Both the position numbers and the translations under genes were made by a program. From IMG/VR virus record IMGVR_UViG_3300023184_000002, positions 1-60,292 of that record: 60,292 nt of DNA. One strand, written 5' to 3'. A model generated the notes under the pieces. It did no database searches. It was not told where the DNA came from and saw only the letters and a list, made by a program, of their open reading frames with translations. The DNA comes from a virus. Lineage: Duplodnaviria; Caudoviricetes. Each line of letters starts with the position of its first letter. Position 1 is the stretch's first letter. Shown here one piece after another: positions 3,769-60,292 of the stretch.

Positions 3769-3975
3769 TCACGCTTCCTCCATTGTTTTGATTGTAGGGC
3801 AAGGGTAAATGTATTGATGATGGAAACCGTTGGTGCTTACTGTGACATTTTGCTCGCTTATTGTCCAGCAATGTTTACATACCGTTAAATCAGCGAATCG
3901 TGTGGGTGTGTGAAGGTCACGAACTGCATCTAGGCGTTTCAGGGCTTTCTCAACATAGCGTGTGGTGTATCTCAT
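3769..3975 (-). CDS. Hypothetical protein (CxxC...YPCPT)
   Basis: VRDLHTP...CKHC...YPCPT, a small Cys-containing phage protein; start overlaps the upstream stop. Confidence 0.55.
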   Translation of the reverse strand: MRYTTRYVEKALKRLDAVRDLHTPTRFADLTVCKHCWTISEQNVTVSTNGFHHQYIYPCPTIKTMEEA

Positions 3976-5159
3976 GTGTAAATTATGCCCTGCTCAGGTA
4001 TTTGTAAGCGGTAACTGATGTCTTCATGTGTTAGCCCTGCACACCACCTGTTTATGTCTGCTTTGGGCATACGGAAAGCGAATGAGCCAACTTTGCATGT
4101 CACTTTCCCTGTGGTGTCGGGTGCTGGGTTTGGTGCCCCTCCACCCAATAATTCGGATACATCGGCTGGTTCGTATCCTGTGCCTTTCCAATCGGGTAAG
4201 GAACTGATTAGGAGCCGTAAAGCGTCCCTGTCGTATGTTCCGTGGTCGCTGGTGCGGTTATCTACCAACACTATGCGTGATGCTTCATCGTCTGTGCATT
4301 GAATGTAGGTGACAGCGATTTGTTTCCAGCCGAGGGCTTTGACGGCTTGGTAGGTGTGGTTTCCTGCGAGGATTGTTCCGTCTGTCCGTGCCACGATGGG
4401 TCGGTATTGTCCGAGTTCTTGGAGGGATTGGGCGATTGCTCCGATGTCCCCTTCGCGTGGGTTTTGTGGGTATGGGCGTAGGGTGTCTACATCTGCGAGG
4501 ACGGCTTCGACTCGTTCTGGTGGGCTTAATAATGTCGCTGGGTCGTTGTACATTGGCATCGGTGGTGTGGGTAACTGGAGCCATTCCTTGATTGTGGCTA
4601 TGACTCTTGGGCGTTTCTGGTCTGAGTCTGCCAGTATCGCCTCTTCCCACGCTTCGTAGATTTGTGCATCTAGAGTCCCCCTGAACTTACCTAACACAAG
4701 TTGGTATTCGTCATCTTGTGCTTCACGCATTGGTTTGTCATCTGGAGTAAATGGGCTGTTTAGGAGTTCACTGAGGTTAGCAAGGTCATCGTCTGTGAAT
4801 CCTGTCCCTGCTAAATCGGGAAGTTCACTGAGCATGCCAAAAAGTGCATCTTCATTGTATGAACTCAAGTCGGAGGTGCGATTGTCTGCAATCATGATTT
4901 TCTTGGCTGTGGTTTCATCTACATCTACCCACACGACAGCGATTTGAGTCCACCGTAGTTTCTTGACTGCCTTGTATGTGTGATTACCTGCAAGTATGCA
5001 ATTATCACGCTTGTTCACCACTATGGGCTTGTATTGCCCATGCTTATCTAGGGACTCAGCAATCTTGTCAATGTCACCGCGTCTAGCGTTTTGTGGATGG
5101 GGCGTGATTGAGTTCACTGGCACTGTTTCAGTTTCAGTGATTCTAATGTTGTTGCCCAT
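3972..5159 (-). CDS. Protein with two tandem ParB N-terminal (ParB/Srx) domains
   Basis: Duplicated P(H/Y)PQN.R.GDI..IA.SL...GQY.PIV....ILAGNHTY.AVK.L.W...DNRTSD. Confidence 0.85.
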   Translation of the reverse strand: MGNNIRITETETVPVNSITPHPQNARRGDIDKIAESLDKHGQYKPIVVNKRDNCILAGNHTYKAVKKLRWTQIAVVWVDVDETTAKKIMIADNRTSDLSSYNEDALFGMLSELPDLAGTGFTDDDLANLSELLNSPFTPDDKPMREAQDDEYQLVLGKFRGTLDAQIYEAWEEAILADSDQKRPRVIATIKEWLQLPTPPMPMYNDPATLLSPPERVEAVLADVDTLRPYPQNPREGDIGAIAQSLQELGQYRPIVARTDGTILAGNHTYQAVKALGWKQIAVTYIQCTDDEASRIVLVDNRTSDHGTYDRDALRLLISSLPDWKGTGYEPADVSELLGGGAPNPAPDTTGKVTCKVGSFAFRMPKADINRWCAGLTHEDISYRLQIPEQGIIYT

Positions 5160-34754: not shown

Positions 34755-34816
34755 AAAACCTCCTGAAATACTAGATAAGAATACCTCAGAAGCATTACCT
34801 CAAAAGGTCAACTCGC

Positions 34817-35053: not shown

Positions 35054-38000
35054 AAATCCCTTTACTTATAATCTGCCTAGGTGCAACATTTAATTTCTTT
35101 TTATAATGGTATCTTTGATTTGATAAAATGCTTTTTCCAAGCCACATGGTCAAAGCATTTCCCTGCCCATCTGTGCCATCGCCGTAACCAACCATTGCAA
35201 CATCATAAGGAGTTGGGAAATCTGAAGCCAAAGAATCCCCATTTAACCGAGTAATCATAGTTTCAATGTCGTCCCTAACTGGTTTATTTTTTGGTTCATT
35301 TGGAATAACAAATAAACGGTCAGTTAAATCTTTTCTTACATTTCGCCAATCTTCTGGATGGCTTCCCGACCAATCGTAGCCCATCTTTGCCCATGTATAG
35401 GCACCATTCCAAGCCGTATCTAAAGTAATGGCATTGAACCCGTGGCTGATGTAATAATTTTCTGATTGATTAATAAAAGCGTTTCCAAAACCAGTATTTT
35501 GGTATTGAGATTCCCAAATTTGTAAAACATCATGTGAAACAACTCCAGTGCTTGTGTTTAAAGTTCTTTCAAATTCACCAATTTGGTCGTCAAGTTGATT
35601 AAACAAACTACCTTCTACTTTAATTAAACCATCATTTAAATCAACTTCAACATTCAAAATCCTGCTTTTAATAGTGTCATCATGTCCTGTTTTATCTGTG
35701 TACTCGTAATTCATGTTATAAATTTCTTTAAGGCCTGGTTTTATTCTGGTTGCTATGTCGTCACCAGCATCCAATAAAATTCTTCCAGCGTGTCTTTGAT
35801 AAAAATCATCTGTCAACTGTTCGGTAAGAAGCGAATCCCCTTGATGTTGAACATCACGAGCGTCCAAATAATTTTGTAACTCTTGTCGCCAATAAGCATT
35901 GCCTTTAGTATCAGCCCAAGCCCTAGCCCTATCTGCTATCTCAACAGAAGCATCTGATAACCCTTGAATCCAAGTCAACCAAGCCACGCTTGGGCCTTTA
36001 TCTTTCATACTCAAAATCATTTGTTGGCGTTCGGCACCCCATTGACCATACTTACCCTCAGCAACAGGTCCACCGTTTGCCCAATTACCATGCGAACTTT
36101 GGTCGTGCTGACCAGCAAGATGCTTAATTAAATTTAAAGGTGGTACAACAAAAATTGTTTTAGCAACAGGTTTATCTAAGCCTTCACCAAAATCACAAAT
36201 GTCTTCAACCGTGTAAACAGTATTGTCCTCATCAGTTTTGCTTTTCAATACAGGATTTTGCCCGTATTCGGATTGTCTATCAAAACTCCATTGACAATCA
36301 TAAGCATAAGTTTGAGTTGCCTGATTGCCACTTTTGCCTTCACTCAAAAACCAATCAGCAAACGCTTCAGCAAAACCTTCCTTGGAATTTGTTTGCCCGT
36401 ATTTACTTAAACCCAACTTCCCGTCAACAGCCCTATTCCAAAGGCTTTGAGTTGAAGCGGAACTTGCATCATTATTTATTTGATTAATTTGCATTTGACG
36501 AGCATGTCCCCATTCATGAGCCAACCAGTATTGCCCTTGATGATTTACATTTTGGTAAGATTGAGTAAAACGCCCAAATTTTCTTTTGTTTGGTTTATCA
36601 AAAAATCCAGTTGAAGCAACATAAATTTGTACACCCATTTTTTCAGCAACTTTATCCCAACCACCAAGATGTAATCCTTTTACACCTTCTGGAACAGGAT
36701 TGCCACTTGCAGTATCAGCATTCAATAAGGCTTCATCCCCAAAAAACATTCTAACAACAGTATTTTTAGGCAAAGGAGCATGTTGACCCAACTTATTTAA
36801 TTGAAATAAAACAGTTTCAACTTGTTTTTGAATTTCTGGAGTGTATTTTGTATTTTGACTGGGGTCGCTACTTGATGTTCCCTTTAAAGATTGCCAATAA
36901 GAATTAAAATTAGCAACAATTCTGACATCATGGATAGTAGTTTCAAACGCCCATGGCAAAGATTTATCATCTACTGGTTTCCAGCCAGCAATCGGTTTAA
37001 ATTTTTTAGACCATTCATGGTTAGCCCATGAGCCGTGAGTTGACTGGTCGTGCTGACCTGCAAGATGCTTTTGTAAACCACCAAACTCAATAACAATTGG
37101 AGGAACATTAGAATCAATAGATTCTATAACATGAAAACCTGCAATAGATTTGTTCATCAAATTTTTTGCCAAATTAGCAAAATCTAAATGATAAAAAATC
37201 TTTTTATAATTGGGATTATCTTTATCTAACTCCCAAGCAGTAAACATTTCAGCAAAAAATTCACGATGATTAGTTTTACCGTATTTTGAAACTATAGGGC
37301 TAGAACTAAGTTGTTCAAAATCTGCTGTTGCTTGAAAATAATACCTTTGGTCAACAGCATGACCAAACTCGTGAATAATTGTTGCTTGTAAACCGTTATA
37401 GTCATTGCCAACATACTCGTTACCAGAAAAACTTGAAGTAGAAACAAACTCGTCATGAATTACTTCTTTCCAAGTTTTTGCTGTTCCGCTACCTAAACGG
37501 GAAAAAACTGCTGGATTTAAAACAATTACACTGCCTTTTGGTGTGTCATGCCAATTCACATCAGGAATCCACTTTTCAAACAAAGAAGTGATTTCATCTG
37601 CTGTGGGAGCAAATAATTTTTCTTCATTAAATTGTGATGCCCTGTATTTTCTTCGTGCATTACCCTGACTACCAATTGAAGTTACAGTTTCACCACCAAC
37701 GCCCACCCGATTTTCAAGGTCAATAATAAAAGAAACATCGTGCATTGGATACTTTGAAAGCAACTCATTCATGTAACCAATTGCTTCATTTTTTCTTGCA
37801 ACAATGTCTTTGGCGTATTTAATGTTTTGTAACCCTGAGTCATCAAAGCGTGGAACATAAAATTTGCTCCCACTTGGATGTTCGTAACAATCGTATCGCC
37901 CAACAACTTTGGTTAATTCAAAAGTCCCGTGTGCCCAATTACCGTGTGAACTCTGGTCATGTTGCCCTGACATGTGTTTGGTAAAAGCGTCAACAACTGT

Positions 38001-38165
38001 CCAAGTGCCAACTTTTTGCCATTTATCAAATAAACCAACAGTGCTGGTTCTGCCATTAGTTTGGCGTAAATACCCGTATGGATAACCGTCAGCGTCAACG
38101 GAATCAAAAATTAACTCGGCTCCGTCAGCCCTTACAGCGTAAACACTACCTTTGGTTAGTTCCAT
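35043..38165 (-). CDS. Tagged polyprotein C: two zincin (HExxH) peptidase-like modules and a GNAT-like module
   Basis: 3 tags; HEFGH...SKYGKTNHREFFAE; HEWGH...SKYGQTNSKEGFAE; YQNTGFG...GAYTWAKMGYDW. Confidence 0.8.
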   Translation of the reverse strand: MELTKGSVYAVRADGAELIFDSVDADGYPYGYLRQTNGRTSTVGLFDKWQKVGTWTVVDAFTKHMSGQHDQSSHGNWAHGTFELTKVVGRYDCYEHPSGSKFYVPRFDDSGLQNIKYAKDIVARKNEAIGYMNELLSKYPMHDVSFIIDLENRVGVGGETVTSIGSQGNARRKYRASQFNEEKLFAPTADEITSLFEKWIPDVNWHDTPKGSVIVLNPAVFSRLGSGTAKTWKEVIHDEFVSTSSFSGNEYVGNDYNGLQATIIHEFGHAVDQRYYFQATADFEQLSSSPIVSKYGKTNHREFFAEMFTAWELDKDNPNYKKIFYHLDFANLAKNLMNKSIAGFHVIESIDSNVPPIVIEFGGLQKHLAGQHDQSTHGSWANHEWSKKFKPIAGWKPVDDKSLPWAFETTIHDVRIVANFNSYWQSLKGTSSSDPSQNTKYTPEIQKQVETVLFQLNKLGQHAPLPKNTVVRMFFGDEALLNADTASGNPVPEGVKGLHLGGWDKVAEKMGVQIYVASTGFFDKPNKRKFGRFTQSYQNVNHQGQYWLAHEWGHARQMQINQINNDASSASTQSLWNRAVDGKLGLSKYGQTNSKEGFAEAFADWFLSEGKSGNQATQTYAYDCQWSFDRQSEYGQNPVLKSKTDEDNTVYTVEDICDFGEGLDKPVAKTIFVVPPLNLIKHLAGQHDQSSHGNWANGGPVAEGKYGQWGAERQQMILSMKDKGPSVAWLTWIQGLSDASVEIADRARAWADTKGNAYWRQELQNYLDARDVQHQGDSLLTEQLTDDFYQRHAGRILLDAGDDIATRIKPGLKEIYNMNYEYTDKTGHDDTIKSRILNVEVDLNDGLIKVEGSLFNQLDDQIGEFERTLNTSTGVVSHDVLQIWESQYQNTGFGNAFINQSENYYISHGFNAITLDTAWNGAYTWAKMGYDWSGSHPEDWRNVRKDLTDRLFVIPNEPKNKPVRDDIETMITRLNGDSLASDFPTPYDVAMVGYGDGTDGQGNALTMWLGKSILSNQRYHYKKKLNVAPRQIISKGIYDE

Positions 38166-38167
38166 AA

Positions 38168-39352
38168 TTAATACTCTACCACCTTAATTCCCTTGGGAAC
38201 AAGGGGACTAATGTCATCAAAACTATCTGATGGAATGTAAATAGATTCAACATCACTCAACTTAACACCATCATGAATCTGGGCTTCAAAATAAGAACCT
38301 TCATTGAGATACCCAATTTCATAAGTATCATTATTCCAACCCTCATCTTTAGCAATGTTGTACAAAATCCTGTCAGATGCTCGCCAAGCATCAAAAGGAG
38401 TTATTTCTTTTTGAGTCATAGAAATAGGTACGCAACCAGTTGACAACGAATCCCCAACCGACATAGTTGTCCGAGATTTAACATTATCTTTAAACACAAC
38501 CCGAATAGCCCCATACTGCTCAGGTCCATTAATCAAAATGCTTTCATGAAAATCATCTTCAGCCACATAGCCATAAATAGGTCTTTTAGAAACAGGCTCC
38601 GACAAAGGCATACTTTGAGAACGCAACTCACCAGCGATACGACCAATTTTGCTGTACGCACCATTGCTTGTACCTGTTTCAAATTGTGTTTTAAACCTTG
38701 GGTCATCACTTTTCAATAATGTAATAAATGACTTTTCATCCATAGCCTGACAAACTTTTCCATGTTCTTGCAAAGATTTTAAATCATCAGCAATAAGACT
38801 TTGATAATCCAACTCAGAAGAATCAAAACTAGCAAAAAGGGCTTGTTTAACAACTTCATCAGATACCCTACGAAGCAATGCTTCATACATCACAATTGGA
38901 TAATCTTTTCCAGTTACAAAACTAGGATTGATAACTCCTTTAAAAGTGTTATCAAAAACTCCACCAGTTTTGAGAAAAACAGCATCACGAGGATAAGCAT
39001 CTTTAACTTGCTGTTGCAACTCTTTTCCAAGAGCAGACCTAGCAAAAGTATCACCATGAAGAATTTTAACTAAAAAATCTTCTGAACGACTACCACCAAA
39101 ACCACCTGCACCGCTATCTATTTTGTCAGCATAAGTTTTAGCCAATTTTTTAACAGCATTTTTAAAAGTTGTTGTTTCGGCAAAATCGTTAACTGAACCA
39201 TGTGCCCAATTGCCGTGCGTGGATTGGTCATGCTGACCCAAATAATGTTTTAATAAAAGGGAACGCCCAAGAATTTGTTCTGCTCGTAAACGATGACGCA
39301 AAGCCTCAGCACTATCAACTTCAGACAAGAAAGAATCAGTAAACCTATCCAT
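38168..39352 (-). CDS. Tagged protein B: DUF3626-like, probable ADP-ribosyltransferase fold
   Basis: KHYLGQHDQSTHGNW tag; RFKTQFETGTS, RPIYGY, QYG, RTTMSVGDS, YFEAQIHDGV. Confidence 0.7.
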   Translation of the reverse strand: MDRFTDSFLSEVDSAEALRHRLRAEQILGRSLLLKHYLGQHDQSTHGNWAHGSVNDFAETTTFKNAVKKLAKTYADKIDSGAGGFGGSRSEDFLVKILHGDTFARSALGKELQQQVKDAYPRDAVFLKTGGVFDNTFKGVINPSFVTGKDYPIVMYEALLRRVSDEVVKQALFASFDSSELDYQSLIADDLKSLQEHGKVCQAMDEKSFITLLKSDDPRFKTQFETGTSNGAYSKIGRIAGELRSQSMPLSEPVSKRPIYGYVAEDDFHESILINGPEQYGAIRVVFKDNVKSRTTMSVGDSLSTGCVPISMTQKEITPFDAWRASDRILYNIAKDEGWNNDTYEIGYLNEGSYFEAQIHDGVKLSDVESIYIPSDSFDDISPLVPKGIKVVEY

Positions 39353-42314
39353 TTTCCTGTCCCGTCACTAAAAGGTCTAACACAATCCTAGTTTTATCCA
39401 ACCTTTTTGCTCCCATAACCACAAAAGTAGTATTCGGGGCAATAACGAACTCACCTTCTTCATCATTACCCATCGTTGCACCATGAGTACCTGCTGGCAT
39501 GTGAATGTTTGAAAAAACTGTTGCAGATGCTTTAAAAGAATCATTAACACTTTGATGCACGCTATTAGGAGCAGAAGTTGATGTAAAACCTTTTGCTTCA
39601 AAAGTTTTTCCAACCAACCCATTAATGTCTTCCTCAGACATTGTAGAAACTTGTTGTCTAAAAAGGCTTGCCCCTGAACTCCACCTAGTAACCGTCAAAT
39701 CTTGTGTTGTTTCTGTTTCATACAAAGCATTTTTCAAAGAATCAATTTGAGCAATTCCTTGTTCTTTAGGAATTTGTTCATTGTAAATAATTCTAACTGT
39801 GTCATCAATGTTGCCACTACGAAGGTAATCATTCATCCATGAGTACCCAAAGCCAACATAATTATTTCTAGCATCCATTGTTGTTGAATCAAGTCTTGAA
39901 AGGTCTAAGGCTGGAAGGTCATTCAACGAAGCAGATTTAAAACTTTCAGCACCTGCCCAATTGCCGTGCGTAGATTGGTCATGTTGACCTTGCAAGTGTT
40001 TAGACACTGCATCAGGGTTTTGAACAATTAAAGCACCAGCATTTAAAACAACCATTTCTCGGTCAGGCAAACTTCTATCGGCTGGGTCATAAAGCATTGG
40101 ACTGTCATTAATTGCGTCATAGCCCATTGCCAAAGCCATAAGATTTCTAGTTGTTAATTTATCAGTAAAAAACCAACTTGTTGAAAAATCTGTTAAAGCC
40201 GTATGACGAAGTAAACTAATTTGAGATTCTAGTAATCCACTATTTGCCAATACCCAGTTTGCTTCAGAAGAAGGAATAGTTAAAATTTTTGCATTAGGTT
40301 TAAAAGCCATTTTAACTATTTGTTTTTCATCACCTTTATAACCCCAAATTTCAGCCTCTTTTTTCGTATGCGCACCATAAAGACCAATTCCATTTCTACC
40401 CATAGAAATGTAAGGCAATTTTGAAGCCATAAATTGTTTGATTTTATCTTTAGCAGATAATCTAATGTTGTCTGAAGTTTCCAAATCAAAAGCAGAACCT
40501 TGCTGAAAAGTTCGCCAAAATTCCATACCCTGTGAAGTATCACCAAAAGTAGGTTTACCAGTTTTGCCTGTGGCTTTTAAAACATCTTGCAAAGTTTTAC
40601 GCCAAACATCAAGGCTGTCGTATGGTTTATTTGCGTTAATTATTGACGCAAGTTGCTGAATGCTAATTTCATTTGACCCATCACCATCAGCCCAGTTGCC
40701 ATGCGAACTTTGGTCATGTTGCCCTGCGAGATGTTTAACAACACCAGCCCAACCCTCGGCATCTCTTGTCAAAGAAAAAGAATGCTCAATTTTAATTCCA
40801 TTTGGAGCATAACTTCGAGCCAAATTAAGCATTGCCGTGGCAACTCCTTGGCGTTGAAATTTTGGCTCAACAAAAACATTTTCAATTGAAGCATCTGGAA
40901 AGTTTGTATTATGAGAAGCGTTTAAATAACCTATTTGTCTTTTTCCACCAGAAAAAGCAACATAAGCCTGAGTTTCCATGTCAATACCGCCATCGGAAGA
41001 CCGAAAATAATTATCTTGCATTAAATAAATTGTTTGTCCAGATGGGCTGGAGTATTCTGCTGTTACTGAATTTATGAAATCATTTGTTTCATTTTTATTT
41101 GGAAGAATAACTTTTACATTTGAAATTCTTTGTTGTATTTCCTGTTCTTTAGGGGAACGGTCATTACTGTGTGCCCAATCGCCGTGTGAACTCTGGTCAT
41201 GCTGACCTGCAAGATGTTTTTGAACTAAATTTTCTTGAATAAACGGACGGTCATTAAACAACCAATAAAACTTGTTGCCCAAATCTTGACTTTTAGATTT
41301 AGCAATTTCATCTGAAACAACATGAGGTTCAATCATTTTGACTTCAACCACGGTAAATTCTTTGTCTGGTTGTTTAGCCCATAAAGTTACATTGTAATCG
41401 CCCCATCTGTCTTGCCCAGCACCTCGGTCAAATACAAATTTAACATCAGGTGATTCAAATGAACTCAAATCACCCGAAACCAAACTTTCATAAAATGTTT
41501 TTGCTTTTGCTTGGTATTGTTCTTTAGGAACACCTTCAATAACATTTGCACCATAATCCCACATTTGATACCAAGTTTCATCAACATTTCCATTTGCATC
41601 AACATGCTGACGCATTCTTGCACCTGCTGGAAATCTAGCCCAAAAAGGATGTTTAACTTTAGTTACACCAACAACTTCAAATTTTCCACTTGTAATAACT
41701 TCAGCATCTTGTTGAAACATTGCATCTTTAAATGCCCAGCCTTTAGCACCAGCCTGAATTTTTATTAAAACTGAATTATTTCCATTACCCCTACCAGTTG
41801 CATACCACTCGGCCGCACCTTGAGAACGAGTAGTAGATACTAAAGGCATGTCAATAACATCGCCAGCCTCAAGTTGAGTAAAATCTTGTTTTAACCCAGT
41901 TGTATCATCAGATTGTAAACCACGCCACAAAACAGGTTGGGGCTTACTATTTGCAATAGCCTTTAATAGTCCTTTAACTTCATTACGATTAGGGGCACCC
42001 CAACCACGCTCAAGCATGTATTCCAAATAACCACCTTTGTCGTAAGGAGTTTCTGGAACGGGCAAACCTAAAATTTGACATGCGTATTTGCGAAATAATT
42101 CAACAAATTGAGTTCCATCAGGGCCATGTTCCCAAGCGTATTGTGCCCTAGCAGTAAACCCACCACCATTGCGAGGACTAGGAGGAATTGGGTCTAAAGG
42201 ATTCCACGCACTTATTTCATGTGTAATGTTATCAGCCCAAGAACCATGAGTTGATTGGTCATGCTGACCAGCAAGGTGTTTATTTACGGGAACTACAACA
42301 TAAACAGATTTCAT
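39345..42314 (-). CDS. Tagged polyprotein A: ART, GNAT, ART-like and VIP2-type ART modules
   Basis: 4 tags; LWRG/VSTT/QDAEVI; VEPKFQRQGVATAML; GIGLY...GYDAI...VVLN; VTR/FTSTS/EGEFVI. Confidence 0.85.
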   Translation of the reverse strand: MKSVYVVVPVNKHLAGQHDQSTHGSWADNITHEISAWNPLDPIPPSPRNGGGFTARAQYAWEHGPDGTQFVELFRKYACQILGLPVPETPYDKGGYLEYMLERGWGAPNRNEVKGLLKAIANSKPQPVLWRGLQSDDTTGLKQDFTQLEAGDVIDMPLVSTTRSQGAAEWYATGRGNGNNSVLIKIQAGAKGWAFKDAMFQQDAEVITSGKFEVVGVTKVKHPFWARFPAGARMRQHVDANGNVDETWYQMWDYGANVIEGVPKEQYQAKAKTFYESLVSGDLSSFESPDVKFVFDRGAGQDRWGDYNVTLWAKQPDKEFTVVEVKMIEPHVVSDEIAKSKSQDLGNKFYWLFNDRPFIQENLVQKHLAGQHDQSSHGDWAHSNDRSPKEQEIQQRISNVKVILPNKNETNDFINSVTAEYSSPSGQTIYLMQDNYFRSSDGGIDMETQAYVAFSGGKRQIGYLNASHNTNFPDASIENVFVEPKFQRQGVATAMLNLARSYAPNGIKIEHSFSLTRDAEGWAGVVKHLAGQHDQSSHGNWADGDGSNEISIQQLASIINANKPYDSLDVWRKTLQDVLKATGKTGKPTFGDTSQGMEFWRTFQQGSAFDLETSDNIRLSAKDKIKQFMASKLPYISMGRNGIGLYGAHTKKEAEIWGYKGDEKQIVKMAFKPNAKILTIPSSEANWVLANSGLLESQISLLRHTALTDFSTSWFFTDKLTTRNLMALAMGYDAINDSPMLYDPADRSLPDREMVVLNAGALIVQNPDAVSKHLQGQHDQSTHGNWAGAESFKSASLNDLPALDLSRLDSTTMDARNNYVGFGYSWMNDYLRSGNIDDTVRIIYNEQIPKEQGIAQIDSLKNALYETETTQDLTVTRWSSGASLFRQQVSTMSEEDINGLVGKTFEAKGFTSTSAPNSVHQSVNDSFKASATVFSNIHMPAGTHGATMGNDEEGEFVIAPNTTFVVMGAKRLDKTRIVLDLLVTGQENG

Positions 42315-43323: not shown

Positions 43324-44817
43324 CTAGAAAGCATTATCGGATTGTCCAGCATCCTGTTTGCTAGGTGCAGGTTTTTTAGCATTTGGTTTTTGTGCAGGAG
43401 GTTGAACTGGTTTGCCTTGTTGAGGCTGTTGTTTACCAGCAGGAACTGGCAATCCTGTAGCAGGGTCAATTGCAGGAACCACAGGTAATCCTGTAGCAGG
43501 GTCAATTGCGCCCGTAGTATCACCATTATGTTCAGCAGGTGGAAGTGAACCCAATTCACGCAAATAATCTTCAAGATTCGGGTCAGAAACAATAATTCCA
43601 GCATTAGCCAACTTGGTCACATAATCTGCAACTTCAGTCAAATCAACATGAGCAATGTCACCATAATTCAACTTAGGAAGACGAGAAGTATCCATTCCAT
43701 TGAAACGCATCAAACGGCTAATAGCATGCTGGTTAATAACTTCAGCAATGGATTTAGCAATAGCGTCAACTGCCATAGACCACAAATCCATTTTTGCGGT
43801 ACCCAAAGCAAATGACCCAACATTGTCATGACCCAACAAAATAAAGTCCGACAAAACAGACATAGCAATTCGTTGGTCATAGCGAGAAATAATTTTGTCC
43901 GTATCGAACTGACGGGAACCACCAGCCGACAAAAGGGTCAAATCAAACAGTTTTTTACCAGATTCGTCATACTGGGCAGGAAAAACTACACCTTCTTGTT
44001 CATTGCGTTTAATGTTTTGAACAATTTCAACAATGCTATTTAGTACCGCTTTTTGTGCATCTGTAGCCGTAGATGAAAGGAACTCAGGTGGAACATAAGC
44101 GACAGGAAGACCAGCCAAATCACGCTCAATACCAATTGCTTCAATTTCTTCCATACGCTTTTTAAAGAAATAAGGACGGTAAGCGTTCCGAAGCATGGAA
44201 CGACCTTCAGGATTATTTTTTTGGTTTGTGGTACGGAAAAGTAATGCTTTTTCAATTGGGACATAATGGGTTCCACCGCCTGAAGGGTCATTTTGAATCA
44301 TGCAGTTAACACCGCCATCGTCATCAAATTCCCAACGCATTAAAGAATCTTGACTACGGATAGCAAATTTACGCCAACCAATTTTGCCGTCCGTGTATTG
44401 TGAACGCTTTGTTGGGTCATTTTCGTCAGGTCCAACTCGGCGTTTGTAAACAATTTCGTGGTATGACCAACCAAAAGTAAGCATTGAAAGAATACTTGCT
44501 AAAGTTGCGTCCCAAGAATCAGACATGTCAAAAAGGCAAGATTCAATAAAATCTGCAACTTCAACATCTTTTTCTTTAGGTTGACCTTCAGCATTTGGCT
44601 CAATGTAAGGGTCAACTCGCCATTCAAGGCGAACAATAACTTTTTCAATCGCGTAAAGAATAGAACCAATAACAGGGTCATTGTCAGCCATTTCACGGTA
44701 AGCACGGATACCGTTTTTGTTTCGTAACGCTGTAATGAACTCTTCAAAGACTGTGCCACCAGCACGATGAAGCCCTGTGGAGCCTAACTCAGAAAAATCT
44801 GGTTTTGGTGTAGCCAT
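43324..44817 (-). CDS. Portal protein (DUF935-like)
   Basis: YREM..NDP, LTFGWSYHEIVY, NNPEGRSMLR, IGIERDLAGLP, GSFALG; start MATPKP. Confidence 0.9.
   Translation of the reverse strand: MATPKPDFSELGSTGLHRAGGTVFEEFITALRNKNGIRAYREMADNDPVIGSILYAIEKVIVRLEWRVDPYIEPNAEGQPKEKDVEVADFIESCLFDMSDSWDATLASILSMLTFGWSYHEIVYKRRVGPDENDPTKRSQYTDGKIGWRKFAIRSQDSLMRWEFDDDGGVNCMIQNDPSGGGTHYVPIEKALLFRTTNQKNNPEGRSMLRNAYRPYFFKKRMEEIEAIGIERDLAGLPVAYVPPEFLSSTATDAQKAVLNSIVEIVQNIKRNEQEGVVFPAQYDESGKKLFDLTLLSAGGSRQFDTDKIISRYDQRIAMSVLSDFILLGHDNVGSFALGTAKMDLWSMAVDAIAKSIAEVINQHAISRLMRFNGMDTSRLPKLNYGDIAHVDLTEVADYVTKLANAGIIVSDPNLEDYLRELGSLPPAEHNGDTTGAIDPATGLPVVPAIDPATGLPVPAGKQQPQQGKPVQPPAQKPNAKKPAPSKQDAGQSDNAF
43445..43510 (-). 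repeat. Tandem coding repeat AIDPATGLPV x2 in the portal C-terminal tail
   Basis: aatcctgtagcagggtcaattgc occurs twice, 36 nt apart. Confidence 0.8.
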
Positions 44818-44889
44818 GTTCACATCCTTACAAAAAAATAAACCTTCTTGCATAATACATTGCAAAAAGCACTATCTTGAGGTGGCTCG

Positions 44890-45525
44890 CTACTTAATGT
44901 AAAGCCATGCTTCAAAATTTAATGATTTCCAAATCAACTCACCTTGCTCAAATCCAGCATCTTTAGCCATTTGTTGATTCTTTGCAGATGTGTTAGGTCG
45001 CATTAGTTTACGCAAATCTGCGTCTTTATCCAAAATTTCCATTGCATCAAAATAAGGTCTTTTATGTTGGTGCAAAGTAGATGTCAGCATTTCTTGAATT
45101 TTGCCTGATTCTGCATAAACTTTTTCAGCCCAAATAAAAGCCCCATTTGGTCGTAGCCCGTCATAAATTCTGTTTAACAATTCTTGGCGTTTAGTACTGT
45201 CAATGAACTGCAAAGTAAAAATTGAGGTAATTAGTGAACAATCTTCAAACCCAAAATACTCGGTTATGTCGTAACTAAAATACTCAACAGGGGTTGGGTT
45301 GAATCTTGGTAGCAAATTTCTTGATTTATCAATCCCAATTTTGACACCATCGTGCCGAACCGTTTCTAGCAATTTGCCTGTACTGCAACCAATGTCAATA
45401 AAAGTTGTATCAGGTAATAAAAAGAAATCACTCAAAGTTACTACCGTGTCAAACAAAGCATCGTAAGCAGGAATTGAACTCGCTATGTGGTCATCAAAAT
45501 TATTGACCGTATCAAAAGAAAACAT
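44890..45525 (-). CDS. CmoA-like carboxy-SAM synthase / class I SAM methyltransferase
   Basis: FSFD...FDDHIASSIPAY, DIGCSTG, SIFTLQF, AEK, WKSLNF parallel the CmoA motifs. Confidence 0.8.
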   Translation of the reverse strand: MFSFDTVNNFDDHIASSIPAYDALFDTVVTLSDFFLLPDTTFIDIGCSTGKLLETVRHDGVKIGIDKSRNLLPRFNPTPVEYFSYDITEYFGFEDCSLITSIFTLQFIDSTKRQELLNRIYDGLRPNGAFIWAEKVYAESGKIQEMLTSTLHQHKRPYFDAMEILDKDADLRKLMRPNTSAKNQQMAKDAGFEQGELIWKSLNFEAWLYIK

Positions 45526-46507
45526 TTAACCCTTTACCTATTGCTTCAACAACTGGGATTGTTATTGTTCTGCCCAATCGTTCGTATCTGACATTATCGG
45601 AAACCAATGAACCGTCTTCGTAATACTTAGTGAACTCATCTGGTAAACCCTGTAACCGTTCACATTCCAACGGGGTAAGCCTACGAATGACTACAGTTTT
45701 GCCGTCATCAATAGCAACTCCATGCCTATCCTGAGCCGTTAAAGTAAACGCTGGTTCATTATGTTCCTTGAACCTGCGACCATTTTGACGCTTCTCGGCA
45801 CGGTTAACTGTCAGCACAGGTTTAACGGTAACAAACGGAACATTGCCACCACCTGTTCCCATTTGGGCTAAAAGAGTTGGGGCTGTTGCTCCAAAGTATC
45901 GAAATCCGTTATCTCTTCTACTCCATTGGGCAATTCCGTTTTCTGATTCAACTTCGACAACATTTGTTGAACCTGTTCTTCCGATAGGAAATACTTTGGG
46001 TCGGGGTTTTCCTCTAAGATTTGCGACAAGGAAAATGCGTTCTCTGTGTTGTGGGACTCCAAAATTTTGGCTGTCAAGCAATTCCCATTGGCAGTCATAC
46101 CCCATCTCATCCAAGACTCCGAGGATAACTGCGAAAGTTGTTCCATTGTCGTGGTTGAGGAGTCCTTTAACATTCTCAAAAACGATGTACGGTATTCGCT
46201 TATCTCTGGCAAGTCTGAACATTTCAAAAGCCAAAGTACCTCTTGTGTCTTCCAAAGAGAATCCAGTTCGCTTTCCTGCAACTGAAAAAGTTGCACAAGG
46301 AAATCCTCCAACGATGAGGTCGGCTTCAGGGAGGTCGCTGGCGGAAATAGTCCGAACATCTCGTCCATCTGGTTGTTCTCCGAATTGTCGTTCATAAATC
46401 CTCCGTGGTGCTTTTTCCCATTCGTTTGCCCAAACACAGGTATGACCAGTGCGTTCCAGACCTAGCCGAAACGCACCGATACCTGCAAAAAGTTCAATAA
46501 ATTTCAT
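45512..46507 (-). CDS. C5-cytosine DNA methyltransferase family (candidate carboxymethyltransferase)
   Basis: ELFAGIG, GFPC, ENV, QHRERIF, RRLTPLECERLQG; motif X reads LGRTITIPVV. Confidence 0.92.
   Translation of the reverse strand: MKFIELFAGIGAFRLGLERTGHTCVWANEWEKAPRRIYERQFGEQPDGRDVRTISASDLPEADLIVGGFPCATFSVAGKRTGFSLEDTRGTLAFEMFRLARDKRIPYIVFENVKGLLNHDNGTTFAVILGVLDEMGYDCQWELLDSQNFGVPQHRERIFLVANLRGKPRPKVFPIGRTGSTNVVEVESENGIAQWSRRDNGFRYFGATAPTLLAQMGTGGGNVPFVTVKPVLTVNRAEKRQNGRRFKEHNEPAFTLTAQDRHGVAIDDGKTVVIRRLTPLECERLQGLPDEFTKYYEDGSLVSDNVRYERLGRTITIPVVEAIGKGLNVFF
45868..46437 (-). CDS. Out-of-frame nested ORF, EcoHK31I beta-polypeptide-like
   Basis: 189 codons open in an alternative frame; WGM...GNCLT....ESHN...SLSQILEENPDPKYFLS. 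Confidence 0.55.
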   Translation of the reverse strand: MFGQTNGKKHHGGFMNDNSENNQMDEMFGLFPPATSLKPTSSLEDFLVQLFQLQESELDSLWKTQEVLWLLKCSDLPEISEYRTSFLRMLKDSSTTTMEQLSQLSSESWMRWGMTANGNCLTAKILESHNTENAFSLSQILEENPDPKYFLSEEQVQQMLSKLNQKTELPNGVEEITDFDTLEQQPQLF

Positions 46508-46683
46508 TGACCAATTTGTTCAATTTTTGTTGCTTGAACTGGTGGCGACCATGTTGACCAAGCATCAGAACGAAACGCAATTCGCCCAATGTCGGTGCCC
46601 CAAGTTGTTACAAGGATTTGTGAACCGTCAACCATGTCAAAAATGTAGTTCCGTCCAACTGCTGTTTCTTCTTGTTCGCTCAT
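46504..46683 (-). CDS. Hypothetical 59-aa protein (MSEQEETAVGRNYIFDM...)
   Basis: Translated by hand; ATGA overlaps at both ends. Confidence 0.55.
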   Translation of the reverse strand: MSEQEETAVGRNYIFDMVDGSQILVTTWGTDIGRIAFRSDAWSTWSPPVQATKIEQIGQ

Positions 46684-46850
46684 GCCGTTACAAGCCCTTC
46701 ATCAATAAGTGCTTGTGCGGTGCGTCCGTAATGTCCTTGAAGTGACCATGCTTTACCAGTGTTAACAAGTTCTTGAAAGAAATCAATAACTTCCTGCCCA
46801 AACAATTCGCCTTGTTCATACGCAATAATTTGATTAATAAGTTTTTCCAT
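46680..46850 (-). CDS. Small 56-aa phage protein (MEKLINQIIAYEQGEL...AWSLQGHYGRTA)
   Basis: Translated by hand; TAATG coupling to an upstream short ORF; familiar phage motif. Confidence 0.65.
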   Translation of the reverse strand: MEKLINQIIAYEQGELFGQEVIDFFQELVNTGKAWSLQGHYGRTAQALIDEGLVTA

Positions 46851-46999
46851 TATTTACCTGCCTTATGATTTTTGCGTTCCATCTCAATAAGTGAAACTGC
46901 TTCTTCCATGGTTATTAAATCTTCTTGTTGAGATTTAATAATGTCTATGACTAATTGAATTAAATTTGAACTCAATTTTCCGTCCTTCCTTTTTTGCCT

Positions 47000-47031
47000 A
47001 CACTTGATTGTAACACACTTTTAGTTTAGTT
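47000..47031 (-). promoter_or_regulatory. Repeated phage promoter upstream of the DNA-modification operon
   Basis: Minus strand AACTAAACTAAAAGTGTGTTACAATCAAGTGT, then SD GGAAGGA. Confidence 0.75.
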
Positions 47032-47284
47032 ATGACTCTTTGGGTTTCGTGTCATCTTTAGCCTGACATTTGCAATTATCACTTTCGCAACCGCCAACAA
47101 CATCCCAATCAAACCTGTCCCACTCAACAACTTTAGGCTCACGCTTAGGGAGGCTATTGCGAATCCAACTCAAAGCCGTCATTACTAACGCAATCCAGCC
47201 AAGAATTTGCACCGTGTATTCATGCCAATAAAAAGCCAAACCAACAATTGTGCCATTAACGGCAAACTTAAAATAGCCGTACAT
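47030..47284 (-). CDS. Small membrane protein (2 TM)
   Basis: Two hydrophobic segments; coupled to the ssb stop. Confidence 0.55.
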   Translation of the reverse strand: MYGYFKFAVNGTIVGLAFYWHEYTVQILGWIALVMTALSWIRNSLPKREPKVVEWDRFDWDVVGGCESDNCKCQAKDDTKPKES

Positions 47285-47703
47285 TAGAACGGAAATTCTT
47301 CAGACGGAGCAGGTGTAGCCCAAGGGTCAACTTCTTTAGAACGATTAGAACCCGAACCTTTGTTAATGCTTACAGGGTCACGCTTCAAATCAACTGCAAC
47401 ATTGTAAGCCTGAATTTGCATAGCCCCACCTTTGTTGCCTTCTTTGTTTTCCCATTCTTTCCAAGATGCCTTGCCGTAAACAACAACAGGGGAACCCTTG
47501 GTCAAAGATTCAGCAACATTCTCGCCTAACTTGTCCCAAGCAGAAACACGCCAAGCCGTTACATCGGTTGATTCCCAACCCGAATCTGTTTTCTTAGATG
47601 TTGAAGTTAAAACTGTAAAAGTTGCTACAGCCTTACCTTCTTTAGTAAATCGCAACTCAGGGTCGCCAGCAAGATTGCCAATTACCGTTACATTTGCACT
47701 CAT
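47284..47703 (-). CDS. ssb: Single-stranded DNA-binding protein
   Basis: VTVIGNLAGDPELRFT..GKAVATFTV, LGENVAESLTKG, DPW...EEFPF (actinobacterial type). Confidence 0.95.
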   Translation of the reverse strand: MSANVTVIGNLAGDPELRFTKEGKAVATFTVLTSTSKKTDSGWESTDVTAWRVSAWDKLGENVAESLTKGSPVVVYGKASWKEWENKEGNKGGAMQIQAYNVAVDLKRDPVSINKGSGSNRSKEVDPWATPAPSEEFPF

Positions 47704-48032
47704 TCGTTTTCCTTTTCTTTTTGGAGTTCTTTAATTAAAGCCCTTTTTTCACGGGCTTTAATTGCTTGAGGTGTTGTTGACAAAAACTCAAAAATTGGTT
47801 TTGCAACAATTCCCCTAGTCTTTCTTATCACTTTTCGTTGCGGATAGGTAGTACCGCCCCAAATTCCTTGAACATCAGTTTGTACAGCGTACTCCAAGCA
47901 TTCCTCAAGGAAGTGACATTTTTTACAAATTTCCATAGCGTCACGGTTTGCTCGTATAAGCGAACCATCTGGAAACCACATCTCTGGGTCAACTTGGGCA
48001 CAAAGTTGCGACCCATCAAACTTTGGGTACAA
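47700..48032 (-). CDS. whiB: WhiB-family Fe-S transcription factor
   Basis: CAQVDPEMWFP...CKKC....CLEYA...GIWGG. Confidence 0.93.
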   Translation of the reverse strand: MYPKFDGSQLCAQVDPEMWFPDGSLIRANRDAMEICKKCHFLEECLEYAVQTDVQGIWGGTTYPQRKVIRKTRGIVAKPIFEFLSTTPQAIKAREKRALIKELQKEKENE

Positions 48033-48296
48033 CTAATCTTCCTCTTCTTCCGAAGATAAGATTTCGTCCAACTCAGATTGTGATTTTGCCAAAATCCCAA
48101 CATGATGCCACGGTGGTGCTTTGTCATCGGTTAAAGTAACGGTGTAATACTCACCATTAATTGCAACCCATTCTGTTGCCAAAACCCACGCTGTTGAAAG
48201 TGCCCCTTCAGGAAACATTTCTTTTTGGATTTCGTACAGCATGTTGTCCACGGGGGACTTTTCTGACGCTTCAACAGCATCATCATCTTTTGGCAT
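48033..48296 (-). CDS. Hypothetical acidic protein (candidate leaderless gene)
   Basis: WVLATEW...PPWHHVGIL; TAGAAT-6 nt-ATG upstream. Confidence 0.6.
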   Translation of the reverse strand: MPKDDDAVEASEKSPVDNMLYEIQKEMFPEGALSTAWVLATEWVAINGEYYTVTLTDDKAPPWHHVGILAKSQSELDEILSSEEEED

Positions 48297-48305
48297 GCAC
48301 CTATT

Positions 48306-48434
48306 CTATTGTTTGTCCTTAAAGTTCTTGAGCAACTCGCAAGTGAAGCATTTTCCCAACTTCAACATGGGTTCCCAAACACGATGCCCACAATCGGGAC
48401 AATCAACAATTTTGGTGTCTGGCAATTCCGACAT
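48306..48434 (-). CDS. 42-aa Zn-ribbon protein
   Basis: Translated by hand: CPDCG...CFTC; fills the gap. Confidence 0.5.
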   Translation of the reverse strand: MSELPDTKIVDCPDCGHRVWEPMLKLGKCFTCELLKNFKDKQ

Positions 48435-48436
48435 GA

Positions 48437-48916
48437 TTAATACCAGCCCTGCCGATTATGAAAATCTAACGCTGAACATGGTGTGCCGTAACGATTTTGG
48501 ATGTAACCAATTCCCCAACGGATTTGGGTTTTGCCGTTCGTAAGGTAATCGGCACCAGCAGAACGCATTTTTGATGCAGGTAACGCTTGTGGAATTCCGT
48601 GGGCACCAGAACTGAAATTGTGTGCTTTTGGATTCCAGCCCGATTCCTCATTCCATAGTTTTACCAAACATGAATGTTGGTTTGAACTCCAACCCCGTTT
48701 AATGCCCTGTGAACGGGCATAGGAGCGTAAAGAAACCTTTACTGGTGGCTTTGTGTGGACAATTACTGAAACTGCCTGAGATTTGTTTTTAGCATCGTAT
48801 TTGGCTAGGGCAACTGCATCCGAGTATTCCAATGAGCCACAAAACCCAATTGCCAAAAATACTAAAAATGCGTAAAAGGTATTTACAACCGCTTTTCCTC
48901 GTTTGGTTAATTTCAT
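48437..48916 (-). CDS. Membrane-anchored lytic transglycosylase (SLT-like)
   Basis: N-terminal TM; LWNEESGWNPKA..SSGAHGIPQ...TQIRWGIGYI..RYGTPC.A......GWY. Confidence 0.85.
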   Translation of the reverse strand: MKLTKRGKAVVNTFYAFLVFLAIGFCGSLEYSDAVALAKYDAKNKSQAVSVIVHTKPPVKVSLRSYARSQGIKRGWSSNQHSCLVKLWNEESGWNPKAHNFSSGAHGIPQALPASKMRSAGADYLTNGKTQIRWGIGYIQNRYGTPCSALDFHNRQGWY

Positions 48917-60165: not shown

Positions 60166-60292
60166 AGGTGTGGCCGCTGTGGTGGTGCTTGTGCTGGATA
60201 CGGAATCTTCCAACTGCACTGCACCTTTTTGTGTGGTGGTTCCGTCATTGATACCAATTGTTCCCGTTGTGGTTATGGTTCCGCCAGTAATC
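60166..60292. repeat. Terminal 127-bp direct repeat, copy 2
   Basis: Identical to 1-127. Confidence 0.95.

Follow-up and report, generated by a model that had tools for sequence, protein, structure and literature searches.

Does a pair of overlapping phage genes, one encoding a C5-cytosine methyltransferase homologue and the other a CmoA-like protein, mark DNA with 5-carboxymethylcytosine (5cxmC)? The question is raised by the window, the complete 60-kb phage genome (60,292 nucleotides) that we analysed as a whole. An initial annotation had predicted 5cxmC-containing DNA from the two genes, and homology, covariation and synteny lend support to that prediction. On this basis, which is drawn from sequence, we consider it quite probable that the pair is a phage module for marking DNA with 5cxmC. 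The annotation had also warned that natural phage versions of such enzymes might already have been reported, as indeed they were by Yang et al. in December 2025. In that study, CmoA, CmoX and CmoY of Synechococcus phage S-B43 were found experimentally to make 5cxmC and its glycine amide (PMC12783734). The phage chemistry itself is already published, and the novelty of the locus described here lies in the scaffold on which it appears to have been built.

An overlapping gene pair on the minus strand

The CmoX-like gene, a candidate cytosine-5 carboxymethyltransferase of 331 aa (45512..46507, minus strand), encodes a C5-methyltransferase homologue with a HhaI-like 'GFPC' scaffold. Downstream of it lies the gene for a candidate carboxy-SAM (Cx-SAM) synthase of 211 aa (44890..45525, minus strand), recognized by its matches to TIGR00740, phrog_4752 and the Escherichia coli CmoA structures. 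As the initial annotation had stated, the two genes overlap: the open reading frame list and our reading of the minus strand agree on 14 shared nucleotides (45512..45525), with the CmoA-like ATG lying within the final codons of the methyltransferase gene. This arrangement suggests translational coupling. A tblastn offset of −10 between methyltransferase and CmoA is common to the eight loci nearest to the window's, and the gap between the two genes is 5–11 nt in other related loci and 31 nt in one (L025).

A 59-aa ORF (46504..46683, minus strand) has a stop codon that overlaps the methyltransferase start (ATGA) and is probably co-transcribed with that gene. It is kept upstream of the methyltransferase in 7 of 80 related loci, and a Pfam search assigned it no family. 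Scanning positions 44000–48500 for promoters and terminators returned no minus-strand promoter-like site and nothing exceeding shuffled expectation. No tRNA gene was found in a search of the genome, and megablast of positions 44000–48000 against isolated phages gave no match.

A CmoA-like protein related to a proven Cx-SAM synthase

Profile searches confirm the earlier identification of the 211-aa protein as CmoA-like, with scores that lie under the equivalog cut-offs. The match to TIGR00740 (E-value 3.4e-33) covers profile positions 21–235 of 239 at 115.3 bits, against a cut-off of 193.3, and the match to NF011995 reaches 98.8 bits against a cut-off of 285. The E-values for phrog_4752 and for the E. 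coli CmoA structures are 2e-55 and ∼1e-27, respectively. SpCmoA is the nearest relative and gives the best tblastn matches; the window's protein is 39% identical to this biochemically proven enzyme, and 39–40% identical when the S-CRM01 homologue is included. SpCmoA forms Cx-SAM from SAM and prephenate with a kcat of 2.33 per s (PMC12783734).

The SAM-contact residues of E. coli CmoA are largely present. Residues Y21, D44, G46 and S48 of the window's protein match Tyr39, Asp62, Gly64 and Ser66, and D66, D86, I87 and F107 match Asp89, Asp117, Ile118 and Phe137; in the clade, position 87 varies between Leu and Ile, and each of the others is kept in 68–73 of the 73 CmoAs. Asn90 and Asn132 of the E. 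coli enzyme are not kept and are replaced by Lys67 and Ile102. The column of Arg199, the residue that in E. coli is salt-bridged to the carboxylate of Cx-SAM, holds Asp168 in the window's protein and Glu in SpCmoA. Both proteins have an Arg four residues, or one helical turn, past this column (R172 in the window's CmoA), as do 72 of the 73 clade members. A search of the genome for CmoB found none, and the acceptor of the carboxymethyl group is therefore predicted to be DNA rather than tRNA.

Predicted changes in the cofactor pocket of the methyltransferase homologue

PF00145 matches the 331-aa protein and nothing else in the genome (E-value 8.9e-71; 239 bits, cut-off 22; profile positions 1–321 of 324), and the protein also scores above the cut-off of TIGR00675 (257 bits, cut-off 100.65). 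Its closest solved relative is M.HhaI, with an E-value of 1.2e-48; the corresponding value for SpCmoX (8YF3) is 2.5e-11. Residues 1–162 align to M.HhaI almost without gaps (E-value 3e-45). The catalytic motifs FAGIG (motif I), GFPC (motif IV, with Cys71), ENV (motif VI, with Glu111) and QHRER (motif VIII, with Arg155 and Arg157) are all in place; across all 81 clade sequences, the only departures are an Ile/Val exchange at position 10 and a single Asp at position 156.

The two motifs that form the methyl pocket are altered, and both changes singled out by the initial annotation hold. In motif IV, the codons for the catalytic Cys71 and for Ala72 (46292..46297, minus strand) give PCA in the context GGFPCATFS, where the family has PCQ. 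In motif X, which reads RYERLGRTITIPVV, the codons for E309-R310-L311-G312-R313 occupy 45569..45583 on the minus strand, and Arg313 (45569–45571) replaces the cofactor-pocket Asn. Translating the minus strand directly (GAT AAT GTC AGA TAC GAA CGA TTG GGC AGA ACA ATA) gives D N V R Y E R L G R T I. The enzyme therefore lacks the motif IV Gln and the motif X G-N-[AS]-V and has PCA and G-R-T-I instead, and we regard it as a homologue of the C5-methyltransferase family that is probably not a methyl-transferring member.

The equivalence of these residues, on which the earlier prediction turned, is seen in sequence alignments. With HMMER, Arg313 falls on the conserved cofactor-pocket Asn of M.HhaI ('fgNsv', Asn304), of M.HaeIII ('igNav') and of the Dcm-like enzyme 3lx6/3me5 ('fgNsv'), and Cys71-Ala72 are aligned with C81-Q82 of M.HhaI. 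With MAFFT, Arg313 falls on Arg350 of SpCmoX, in which the residue numbers C98 and R350 were verified. In the SpCmoX crystal structure (8YF3), Arg350 contacts the carboxymethyl group, and the wild-type enzyme accepts Cx-SAM only (PMC12783734). For M.HhaI, the available excerpt of PMC3526304 describes a modelled complex with DNA and cofactor in which Gln82 and Asn304 lie near the extended transferable group, with a possible steric clash, and reports slower methylation by the Q82A variant. By these alignments, Arg313 and Ala72 would both be placed in the cofactor pocket.

Covariation and conservation across relatives

We compared the enzyme with the 150 nearest representatives of its relatives, clustered at 50% identity. 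PCQ and G-N occur together in 121 of the 150; PCQ is never found with the Arg, and G-N is never found with an Ala after the Cys. All six full-length PCA sequences have G-R. Outside these six are three fragments of the PCA/G-R type, two N-terminal (P0003 and P0109, with PCAT) and one C-terminal (P0050, with ERCGRA). Because neither PCA nor G-R is found without the other, the combination of Ala72 and Arg313 is unlikely to be due to chance. Among the best 120 relatives of SpCmoX, SPPCS is present in 120 and ERxGRM in 116, the other four not being aligned there; all of those listed are at least 61% identical, and there is no Asn-type enzyme among them.

The same combination recurs in IMG/VR, where we found 123 distinct related genes, each of them found through, or having, FPCA; Ala72 is kept in all 123, and the Arg is kept in all 121 whose motif X falls inside the fetched DNA. 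In 117 of the 123, a CmoA gene on that strand follows no more than 1.2 kb downstream. For the six in which none was seen, four have no remaining DNA and two have room but no match. In prokaryote genomes the PCAT type was found only in one MAG contig (L092) and in one 1.7-kb fragment (L108). Among the 80 best loci of that scan, the one locus that is complete and of the PCAT type likewise has a CmoA-like gene downstream. The scan identified no host for the phage.

End product, accessory protein and target sites

The initial annotation had noted no obvious hypermodifying ligase, and our searches agree. The genome contains no match to the PF00733 profile, which in a control matched 14 of 14 named genomes and exceeded its cut-off in 10, and none to SpCmoY; tblastn with four ligase queries gave a best E-value of 1.0. 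Among the 52 ORFs scanned against Pfam, 16 of which have no family, there is no ATP-dependent ligase, ATP-grasp enzyme or amidotransferase. Because this complete genome lacks, by homology, a CmoY-type amide ligase, 5cxmC is probably the end product in this phage. A deacetylase/amidohydrolase-like ORF is present at 53579–54508.

A CmoY-like ligase, which resembles Asn synthetase and is related to SpCmoY and to the PaBG ligase, does occur in 7 of the 123 related loci, including loci whose methyltransferase is 79–83% identical to the window's; no ligase was found in the fetched flanks of the other 116. Since a ligase of this type requires a carboxyl group to act on, its presence in close relatives supports carboxymethyl transfer by this group of enzymes. 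A further probable accessory of the module is a 395-aa protein in which two ParB N-terminal domains stand in tandem (3972..5159, minus strand) and which matches PF02195, phrog_8071 and Noc/Spo0J. A ParB-domain homologue directly follows CmoA in 49 of 80 related loci, and the available text of the report by Yang et al. counts ParBc proteins in 1660 CmoX contigs (PMC12783734).

The genome as a whole bears the marks of a phage under extreme restriction pressure. It is wholly purged of AGCT, CCGG, GATC and GCWGC, and GGCC, GCGC and ACGT are depleted. Whatever mark the enzyme makes, the phage thus still avoids many sites that contain C. GCGC is avoided in the window and in L003–L005, but not in L006–L010, all of them close relatives with the same recognition module. 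Because avoidance differs between relatives that share this module, it seems to be tied to the hosts rather than to the enzyme. The target-recognition region of the 331-aa protein aligns with no solved enzyme. Given that GC-containing sites have been purged, a bare GC target is unlikely, as is any other bare or broad GC or CG specificity. The predicted target is instead a specific site of at least 4 bp, for which the C-containing palindromes that have escaped purging, CATG, CTAG, TGCA, GTAC and CGCG, are candidates.

Proposed mechanism

In ordinary C5-methyltransferases, the target cytosine is flipped out and a Cys attacks C6. We propose that the C5-methyltransferase homologue encoded here would likewise flip out its target cytosine, with Cys71 attacking C6. 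The CmoA-like enzyme would supply the cofactor by forming carboxy-SAM from SAM and from prephenate of the host shikimate pathway, and the carboxymethyl group would then move from carboxy-SAM to C5 of the cytosine. Arg313, in the position of the motif X Asn, is predicted to pair with the carboxylate of the cofactor, and Ala72, in the position of the motif IV Gln, may leave space for the bigger group. The resulting 5cxmC would presumably protect the enzyme's target sites from host nucleases, and may in this way have an anti-restriction role.

Origin of the Arg-type enzymes and alternative explanations

The window's enzyme lies outside the SPPC-type CmoX lineage, and its HhaI-like 'FPC' line gained the changes independently. 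It has two of the traits of CmoX, the Arg350 equivalent and the association with CmoA, and lacks two others, the SPPC motif and common descent with SpCmoX. In a tree that included 10 proteins from named phage records (a 701-aa Erwinia protein with a long insert was left out), the branch that splits the SPPC from the FPC lineages has 100% SH-aLRT support, and the window's Arg clade sits within the Asn-type FPCQ enzymes. We consider it quite unlikely that the Arg-type enzymes had a single origin, with the window's gene a diverged or recombinant descendant of SpCmoX. The two lineages do have a signature in common, loss of the Gln after the catalytic Cys together with E-R-x-G-R in motif X, phage genes recombine freely, and the long branch between the lineages makes the deep placement uncertain. 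However, forcing the 15 Arg-type sequences into one clade costs 166 lnL units and is rejected by the AU test (p-AU 0.0002), which is conservative because the trait columns that favour grouping were kept in the alignment. Asn-type enzymes also lie between the Arg clades on either side of the long branch, with P0020, P0045 and P0139 on one side and AphaCL131 on the other. Nor is there any sign of a swapped motif X cassette, since the C-terminal segment that bears the motif is itself FPC-like, scoring about 100–185 against FPCQ enzymes and 53 against SpCmoX, and the N-terminal 162 residues match M.HhaI as described above.

Two other explanations concern the product rather than the ancestry of the enzyme. 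5cxmC could be an intermediate only, which a phage or host enzyme other than CmoY converts in turn, for instance into an amide or ester, to yield a hypermodified cytosine. S-B43 offers a precedent, because its virion DNA contains 5gcxmC and no 5cxmC (PMC12783734), and the ligases in seven FPC-lineage relatives, the 16 ORFs without a family and the unexplained deacetylase/amidohydrolase-like ORF leave room for such a step. We nevertheless judge this unlikely given the negative ligase searches of the genome with PF00733, SpCmoY, the tblastn queries and the Pfam scan, and the lack of a ligase in the flanks of 116 of 123 relatives; the available text of the census by Yang et al., moreover, gives just 2251 ligases for 5615 CmoX contigs (PMC12783734). 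It is highly improbable that the enzyme is an ordinary 5-methylcytosine methyltransferase with an odd motif X, accompanied by a CmoA that serves tRNA cmo5U or drains SAM to counter SAM-dependent defences. The motif X Asn is not universal, being Met, Leu, Gly, Asp or Glu in some phage C5-methyltransferase homologues, the CmoA scores fall under the equivalog cut-offs, and CmoA-driven SAM depletion was left as an open question by Yang et al. (PMC12783734). An ordinary enzyme is nonetheless difficult to reconcile with the strict pairing of PCA with G-R, with the Arg in 121 of 121 readable relatives and with the position of CmoA, which follows the methyltransferase gene in 117 of 123. SpCmoX has this Arg too and uses Cx-SAM only (PMC12783734), and the equivalent of the Ala72 change, Q82A, reduces methyl transfer in M.HhaI (PMC3526304, available excerpt). 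In addition, the genome has no CmoB, and the CmoY-like ligases of close relatives require a carboxyl group.

Implications and comparison with known systems

The available text of Yang et al. states that their CmoX census required the SPPC motif (PMC12783734). By that stated filter, the census would miss a second, independently derived lineage with more than 120 environmental members. We lean slightly towards a joint reading in which carboxymethyltransferases arose at least twice with a signature that is independent of the scaffold, the SPPC-based census is an undercount, the target-recognition region can be swapped, plain 5cxmC is the mark and a ParB protein is a component. If this joint reading is true, a small residue in place of the Gln after the Cys, combined with E-R-x-G-R, would be a general predictor of carboxymethyl transfer, 5cxmC would be written site-specifically, and the double ParB protein may be a third component. 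The convergent four-position signature indicates which residues convert a methyltransferase to carboxymethyl transfer, and it could guide engineering of HhaI-type enzymes to provide new targets for 5cxmC-based sequencing and labelling. The complete, ligase-less genome is likewise a test case for 5cxmC alone as a functional end product.

Laboratory enzymes have been given one or both of the altered pocket positions. In M.MpeI N374K and M.MedI N377K, the motif X Asn is replaced by a basic residue for which a salt bridge to the carboxy-SAM carboxylate has been proposed (PMC12015181, PMC12783734; available text), and in the available text of PMC12015181 both mutants still methylate with SAM. These are single mutants that carry Lys, whereas the window's enzyme occurs in nature and has Arg, together with three more linked changes, all fixed in its lineage: Gln to Ala in motif IV, and Lys to Glu at −4 and an Arg at −3 relative to the motif X position. 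In M.HhaI, according to the available excerpt of PMC3526304, Gln82 and Asn304 were engineered for the passage of larger groups, and the Q82A/Y254S/N304A variant is therefore altered at both of the positions that differ in the window's enzyme. That variant has Ala at position 304, whereas the Arg found here fits charge pairing rather than mere space; in addition, M.HhaI methylates GCGC, the target-recognition regions of the two enzymes do not align, and we identified no Tyr254 equivalent. The CmoA-like protein has the fold and SAM-contact residues of E. coli CmoA (4GEK, 4IWN), but has Asp168 in place of Arg199, scores below the equivalog cut-off and, unlike the E. coli enzyme, has no CmoB partner.

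The closest functional parallel is the S-B43 module. In both phages CmoA adjoins a C5-methyltransferase homologue in which the motif X Arg sits within E-R-x-G-R and the catalytic Cys is no longer followed by Gln. The module is accompanied by a ParB-domain protein, and its chemistry is expected to run from Cx-SAM synthesis to carboxymethylation at C5. The two methyltransferases are only 29% identical, however, and by the tree and the AU test they have separate origins; motif IV is SPPCS in S-B43 CmoX (S95, P96, P97 and C98) and GFPCA in the window. Gene order also differs, being CmoA-CmoY-CmoX in S-B43 and CmoX followed by CmoA, with the 14-nt overlap, in the window. S-B43 has CmoY, whereas the window does not, so that no glycine amide is expected, and a bare GC dinucleotide target is unlikely in the window. 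Finally, the phages themselves differ, S-B43 being a T4-like cyanophage and the window an actinophage-like siphovirus of 60 kb.

A CmoA-like gene overlapping a variant C5-methyltransferase gene

Two overlapping minus-strand ORFs are flanked by early genes (WhiB, SSB) on one side and the portal gene on the other. One (45512–46507) encodes the only C5 cytosine methyltransferase (C5-MTase) homologue of the window genome, a 331-residue protein matching PF00145 over its full length (E 8.9e-71) and TIGR00675 with 257 bits. The stop of an upstream 59-residue ORF overlaps its start (ATGA), and a 14-nt overlap joins it to the ORF of a 211-residue CmoA-like protein (44890–45525), which matches TIGR00740 along its whole length (E 3.4e-33), the E. 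coli CmoA structures (E about 1e-27) and phrog_4752 (E 2e-55), and falls below the NCBI equivalog cut-offs. No CmoB was found in the window genome. The methyltransferase contains the motifs FAGIG, GGFPCATFS, ENV and QHRER, and its motif X reads RYERLGRTITIPVV, where residue 313, after Gly, is Arg. Direct reading of the minus strand places this codon at 45569–45571; ORFs, profiles and strand reading thus confirm every detail of the initial annotation, which had described an overlapping pair with a motif X Arg and PCA in motif IV.

In HMMER alignments, Arg313 falls on the motif X Asn of three solved enzymes, M.HhaI (Asn304), M.HaeIII and the Dcm-like enzyme 3lx6/3me5, and Ala72 lies opposite Gln82 of M.HhaI. 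In a MAFFT alignment with SpCmoX, the homologue in Synechococcus phage S-B43, Arg313 pairs with Arg350 and Cys71 with Cys98, a numbering that we checked against the paper of Yang et al. The equivalence of Arg313 to the cofactor-pocket Asn of C5-MTases, as initially proposed, is supported at the level of sequence. Lukinavicius et al. (2012, PMC3526304) describe a modelled M.HhaI–DNA–cofactor complex in which an extended transferable group lies near Gln82, Tyr254 and Asn304, with a possible clash, and report a slower methylation rate for the Q82A mutant. The two deviations in the window's enzyme thus fall on two positions, Gln82 and Asn304, already picked for pocket engineering.

Passages of Yang et al. 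(Nat Commun, December 2025, PMC12783734) report that SpCmoA produces carboxy-SAM (Cx-SAM), that SpCmoX, which accepts Cx-SAM as its sole cofactor, adds a carboxymethyl group to C5 of cytosine at GC sites, and that Arg350, in place of HhaI Asn304, contacts the carboxymethyl group in the 8YF3 crystal structure. SpCmoY ligates glycine to the resulting 5-carboxymethylcytosine (5cxmC), and the glycine amide is present in S-B43 virion DNA. The census in that paper, which requires an 'SPPC' motif and Arg350, gave 5,615 candidate CmoX sequences, and its contigs also gave 4,257 CmoA, 2,251 ligase and 1,660 ParBc-domain sequences. No further description of such a natural enzyme turned up in the literature searched. 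The mechanism initially suggested for the pair is therefore a published one, as the accompanying remark that natural phage versions might already be known had anticipated.

Homology, covariation and synteny support carboxymethyl transfer

Among isolated phages, the CmoA-like protein has its best tblastn matches in the S-B43 group and S-CRM01 (36–37% identity; 39–40% to the S-B43 and S-CRM01 homologues in a MAFFT alignment). Eight of the residues that contact SAM in E. coli CmoA are conserved in it. At the column of E. coli Arg199 it has Asp168, where the biochemically proven SpCmoA has Glu; both have an Arg four residues further on, which is kept in 72 of 73 CmoA proteins of the clade.

Motifs IV and X covary in the methyltransferase's 150 nearest representatives at 50% identity: PCQ occurs with G-N in 121, PCA with G-R in six full-length rows (E-R-x-G-R in five), and no row mixes these two states. 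The others comprise 11 PCQ rows with motif X unaligned, two PCP rows with G-N, three PCA/Arg-type fragments (two N-terminal with PCAT, one C-terminal with ERCGRA), one fragment without either motif, and six rows in which the Asn column has Leu (2), Met, Asp, Glu or Trp, including two low-score alignments (a PCQ row scored Leu and the Trp row) that may be spurious. Codons for GGFPCATF occur in at least 120 IMG/VR stretches, and the fetched loci, once duplicates were removed, contain 123 distinct related genes. Ala72 is present in all 123, and Arg in all 121 whose motif X lies inside the fetched DNA. In 117, a CmoA homologue follows in the same orientation no more than 1.2 kb downstream; four of the remaining six have no DNA left to examine, and two have room but give no hit.

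Seven of the 123 loci also encode an Asn-synthetase-like ligase akin to SpCmoY and the ligase of Pseudomonas phage PaBG. It lies directly upstream of the methyltransferase in two loci, L009 and L010, whose enzymes are 83% and 79% identical to that of the window, and the gene order in the ERCGRA-motif subgroup is methyltransferase, ligase, CmoA. Because an amide ligase is sensible only where a carboxyl has been installed, these loci offer independent contextual evidence for carboxymethyl transfer in the window's lineage. Homology, covariation and synteny together support the initial reading of the pair as a putative CmoA plus CmoX-like carboxymethylation system.

A 395-residue protein (3972–5159, minus strand) that carries a tandem pair of ParB N-terminal domains, with G-N-H-T in place of the ParB G-E-R-R, may be a third component of the module. 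Its homologue directly follows CmoA in 49 of 80 related loci; in the window it is encoded elsewhere in the genome.

Related arrangements occur in other phages. In the Staphylococcus phages vB-SscS-F1 and SPbeta-like (L172:4485-5492, L173:3669-4667), CmoA adjoins a PCQ-keeping C5-MTase homologue in which, judged by eye ('..VVGGVINQL..'), Gly seems to replace the motif X Asn; this may represent a third way of accepting carboxy-SAM. The two genes of vB-SscS-F1 are separated by one for a PP-loop ligase. Among phage C5-MTase homologues of the SPPC lineage, those of LoVEphage, tooticki6-1, BMBtp14 and Cellulophaga phi18:3 have G-M-S for G-N at motif X and that of Methylophilales phage Melnitz has G-L-M; these five (L087, L089, L090, L091, L084) lack Gln after Cys. 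Full SPPC-type modules are found in Streptomyces phage TurkishDelight (L086: ParB, ParB, methyltransferase with ERIGRA, glutamine-amidotransferase ligase, CmoA) and PaBG (L174: ParB, methyltransferase with ERLGRS, CmoA, a 150-residue ORF, asparagine synthase). Both phages are isolated and culturable, and could be of use for comparison experiments.

Evidence for a separate origin of the FPC Arg-type lineage

We built a tree (59 rows, 309 columns, IQ-TREE quick search) whose groups were named beforehand: seven Arg-type FPC, 35 Asn-type FPCQ and three FPC rows whose Asn column is Met, Leu or Asp, together with eight Arg-type SPPC rows and six from the SPPC lineage that have Asn, Met or Leu. A branch of length about 2.6 with 100% support separates SPPC from FPC. 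The window's Arg clade, with one Met-type sister row (97% support), is placed among Asn-type enzymes, and Asn-type rows branch off between the long branch and each Arg clade. A single origin of the Arg type would put all 15 such rows in one clade; forcing this costs 166 log-likelihood units (p-AU 0.0002), a conservative result because the trait columns, which favour grouping, were kept in the alignment. A swapped motif X cassette is also unlikely, since the C-terminal segment bearing motif X is itself FPC-like. In both lineages the residue after Cys changes from the Gln of Asn-type kin to Ala or Ser, and motif X changes from Y-K-x-x-G-N-A to Y-E-R-x-G-R-T in FPC and from A-R-I-G-N-C to E-R-x-G-R-M in SPPC. 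Within the overall explanation, these shared changes very probably reflect convergence.

Genome, host and predicted end product

The window is an entire IMG/VR record with 100% CheckV completeness and a 127-nt exact terminal repeat. One minus-strand tail-fibre ORF spans the record ends (1–1041 and 59407–60291), which together with the repeat indicates a circular assembly cut within a gene. A WhiB gene, an actinophage indicator according to a passage in PMC10202952, a DUF732 protein and a portal 55–58% identical to Arthrobacter phage portals indicate an actinobacterial host, and the G+C content of about 41% suggests a low-GC actinobacterium.

None of the 52 window ORFs scanned against Pfam is an ATP-dependent ligase, an ATP-grasp enzyme or an amidotransferase; PF00733 and SpCmoY had no match in six-frame searches, and four ligases used as tblastn queries reached an E-value of 1.0 at best. 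This agrees with the initial failure to see a downstream hypermodifying ligase, and 5cxmC itself would then be the expected end product, a reading that we modestly favour. The genome also encodes a histone-deacetylase/acetylpolyamine-amidohydrolase family protein (53579–54508, plus strand, opposite to the pair; PF00850 E 5e-51) and, among the head genes, a ferritin/Dps-like protein (27497–27994, minus). A run of very large minus-strand ORFs (28760–42314), bounded by the portal/MuF genes and the capsid protease, encodes proteins of 989 (ADP-ribosyltransferase and GNAT domains), 394, 1040 (weak lethal-factor-like metalloprotease match), 995, 280 and 686 residues (zeta-toxin-type kinase domain), which look like virion-borne effectors.

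Site avoidance and target sequence

AGCT, ATAT, CCGG, GATC and GCWGC are absent from the window, against Markov expectations of about 218, 139, 97, 164 and 98. CCWGG (4 observed versus 84 expected), ACGT (20 versus 186), GGCC (33 versus 137), GCGC (27 versus 91) and TCGA are all strongly depleted; CATG, CTAG, TGCA, GTAC and CGCG are unpurged or just mildly depleted. AGCT is also missing from all 531 kb of 80 related loci (L003–L082), and purging of ATAT and GCGC is confined to the nearest relatives. We know of no restriction enzyme linked to ATAT. Since bare GC or CG specificity would protect most avoided sites, the enzyme probably recognises a longer site.

The target-recognition region aligns with none of the solved enzymes. 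Among relatives (alignment A4: window, L005–L073, P0001–P0013; residues about 163–270 of the window protein) it is modular, with one or two 'PT[LI]xA...GG..VP' modules per protein, an arrangement resembling that of multispecific Bacillus phage methyltransferases. One relative, L005 (85% identity), is missing most of the module.

Comparison with known systems

M.HhaI (E 1.2e-48) resembles the window's enzyme much more closely than does SpCmoX (E 2.5e-11; 29% identity). The published census demands S-P-P-C, whereas the window has G-F-P-C, and SpCmoX has bare GC specificity, whereas the window's enzyme probably has a longer site. The ParBc association reported by Yang et al. is echoed by the ParB homologues beside CmoA in the window's relatives. 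The locus is new as a ligase-less representative of a second, separately derived lineage of candidate carboxymethyltransferases.
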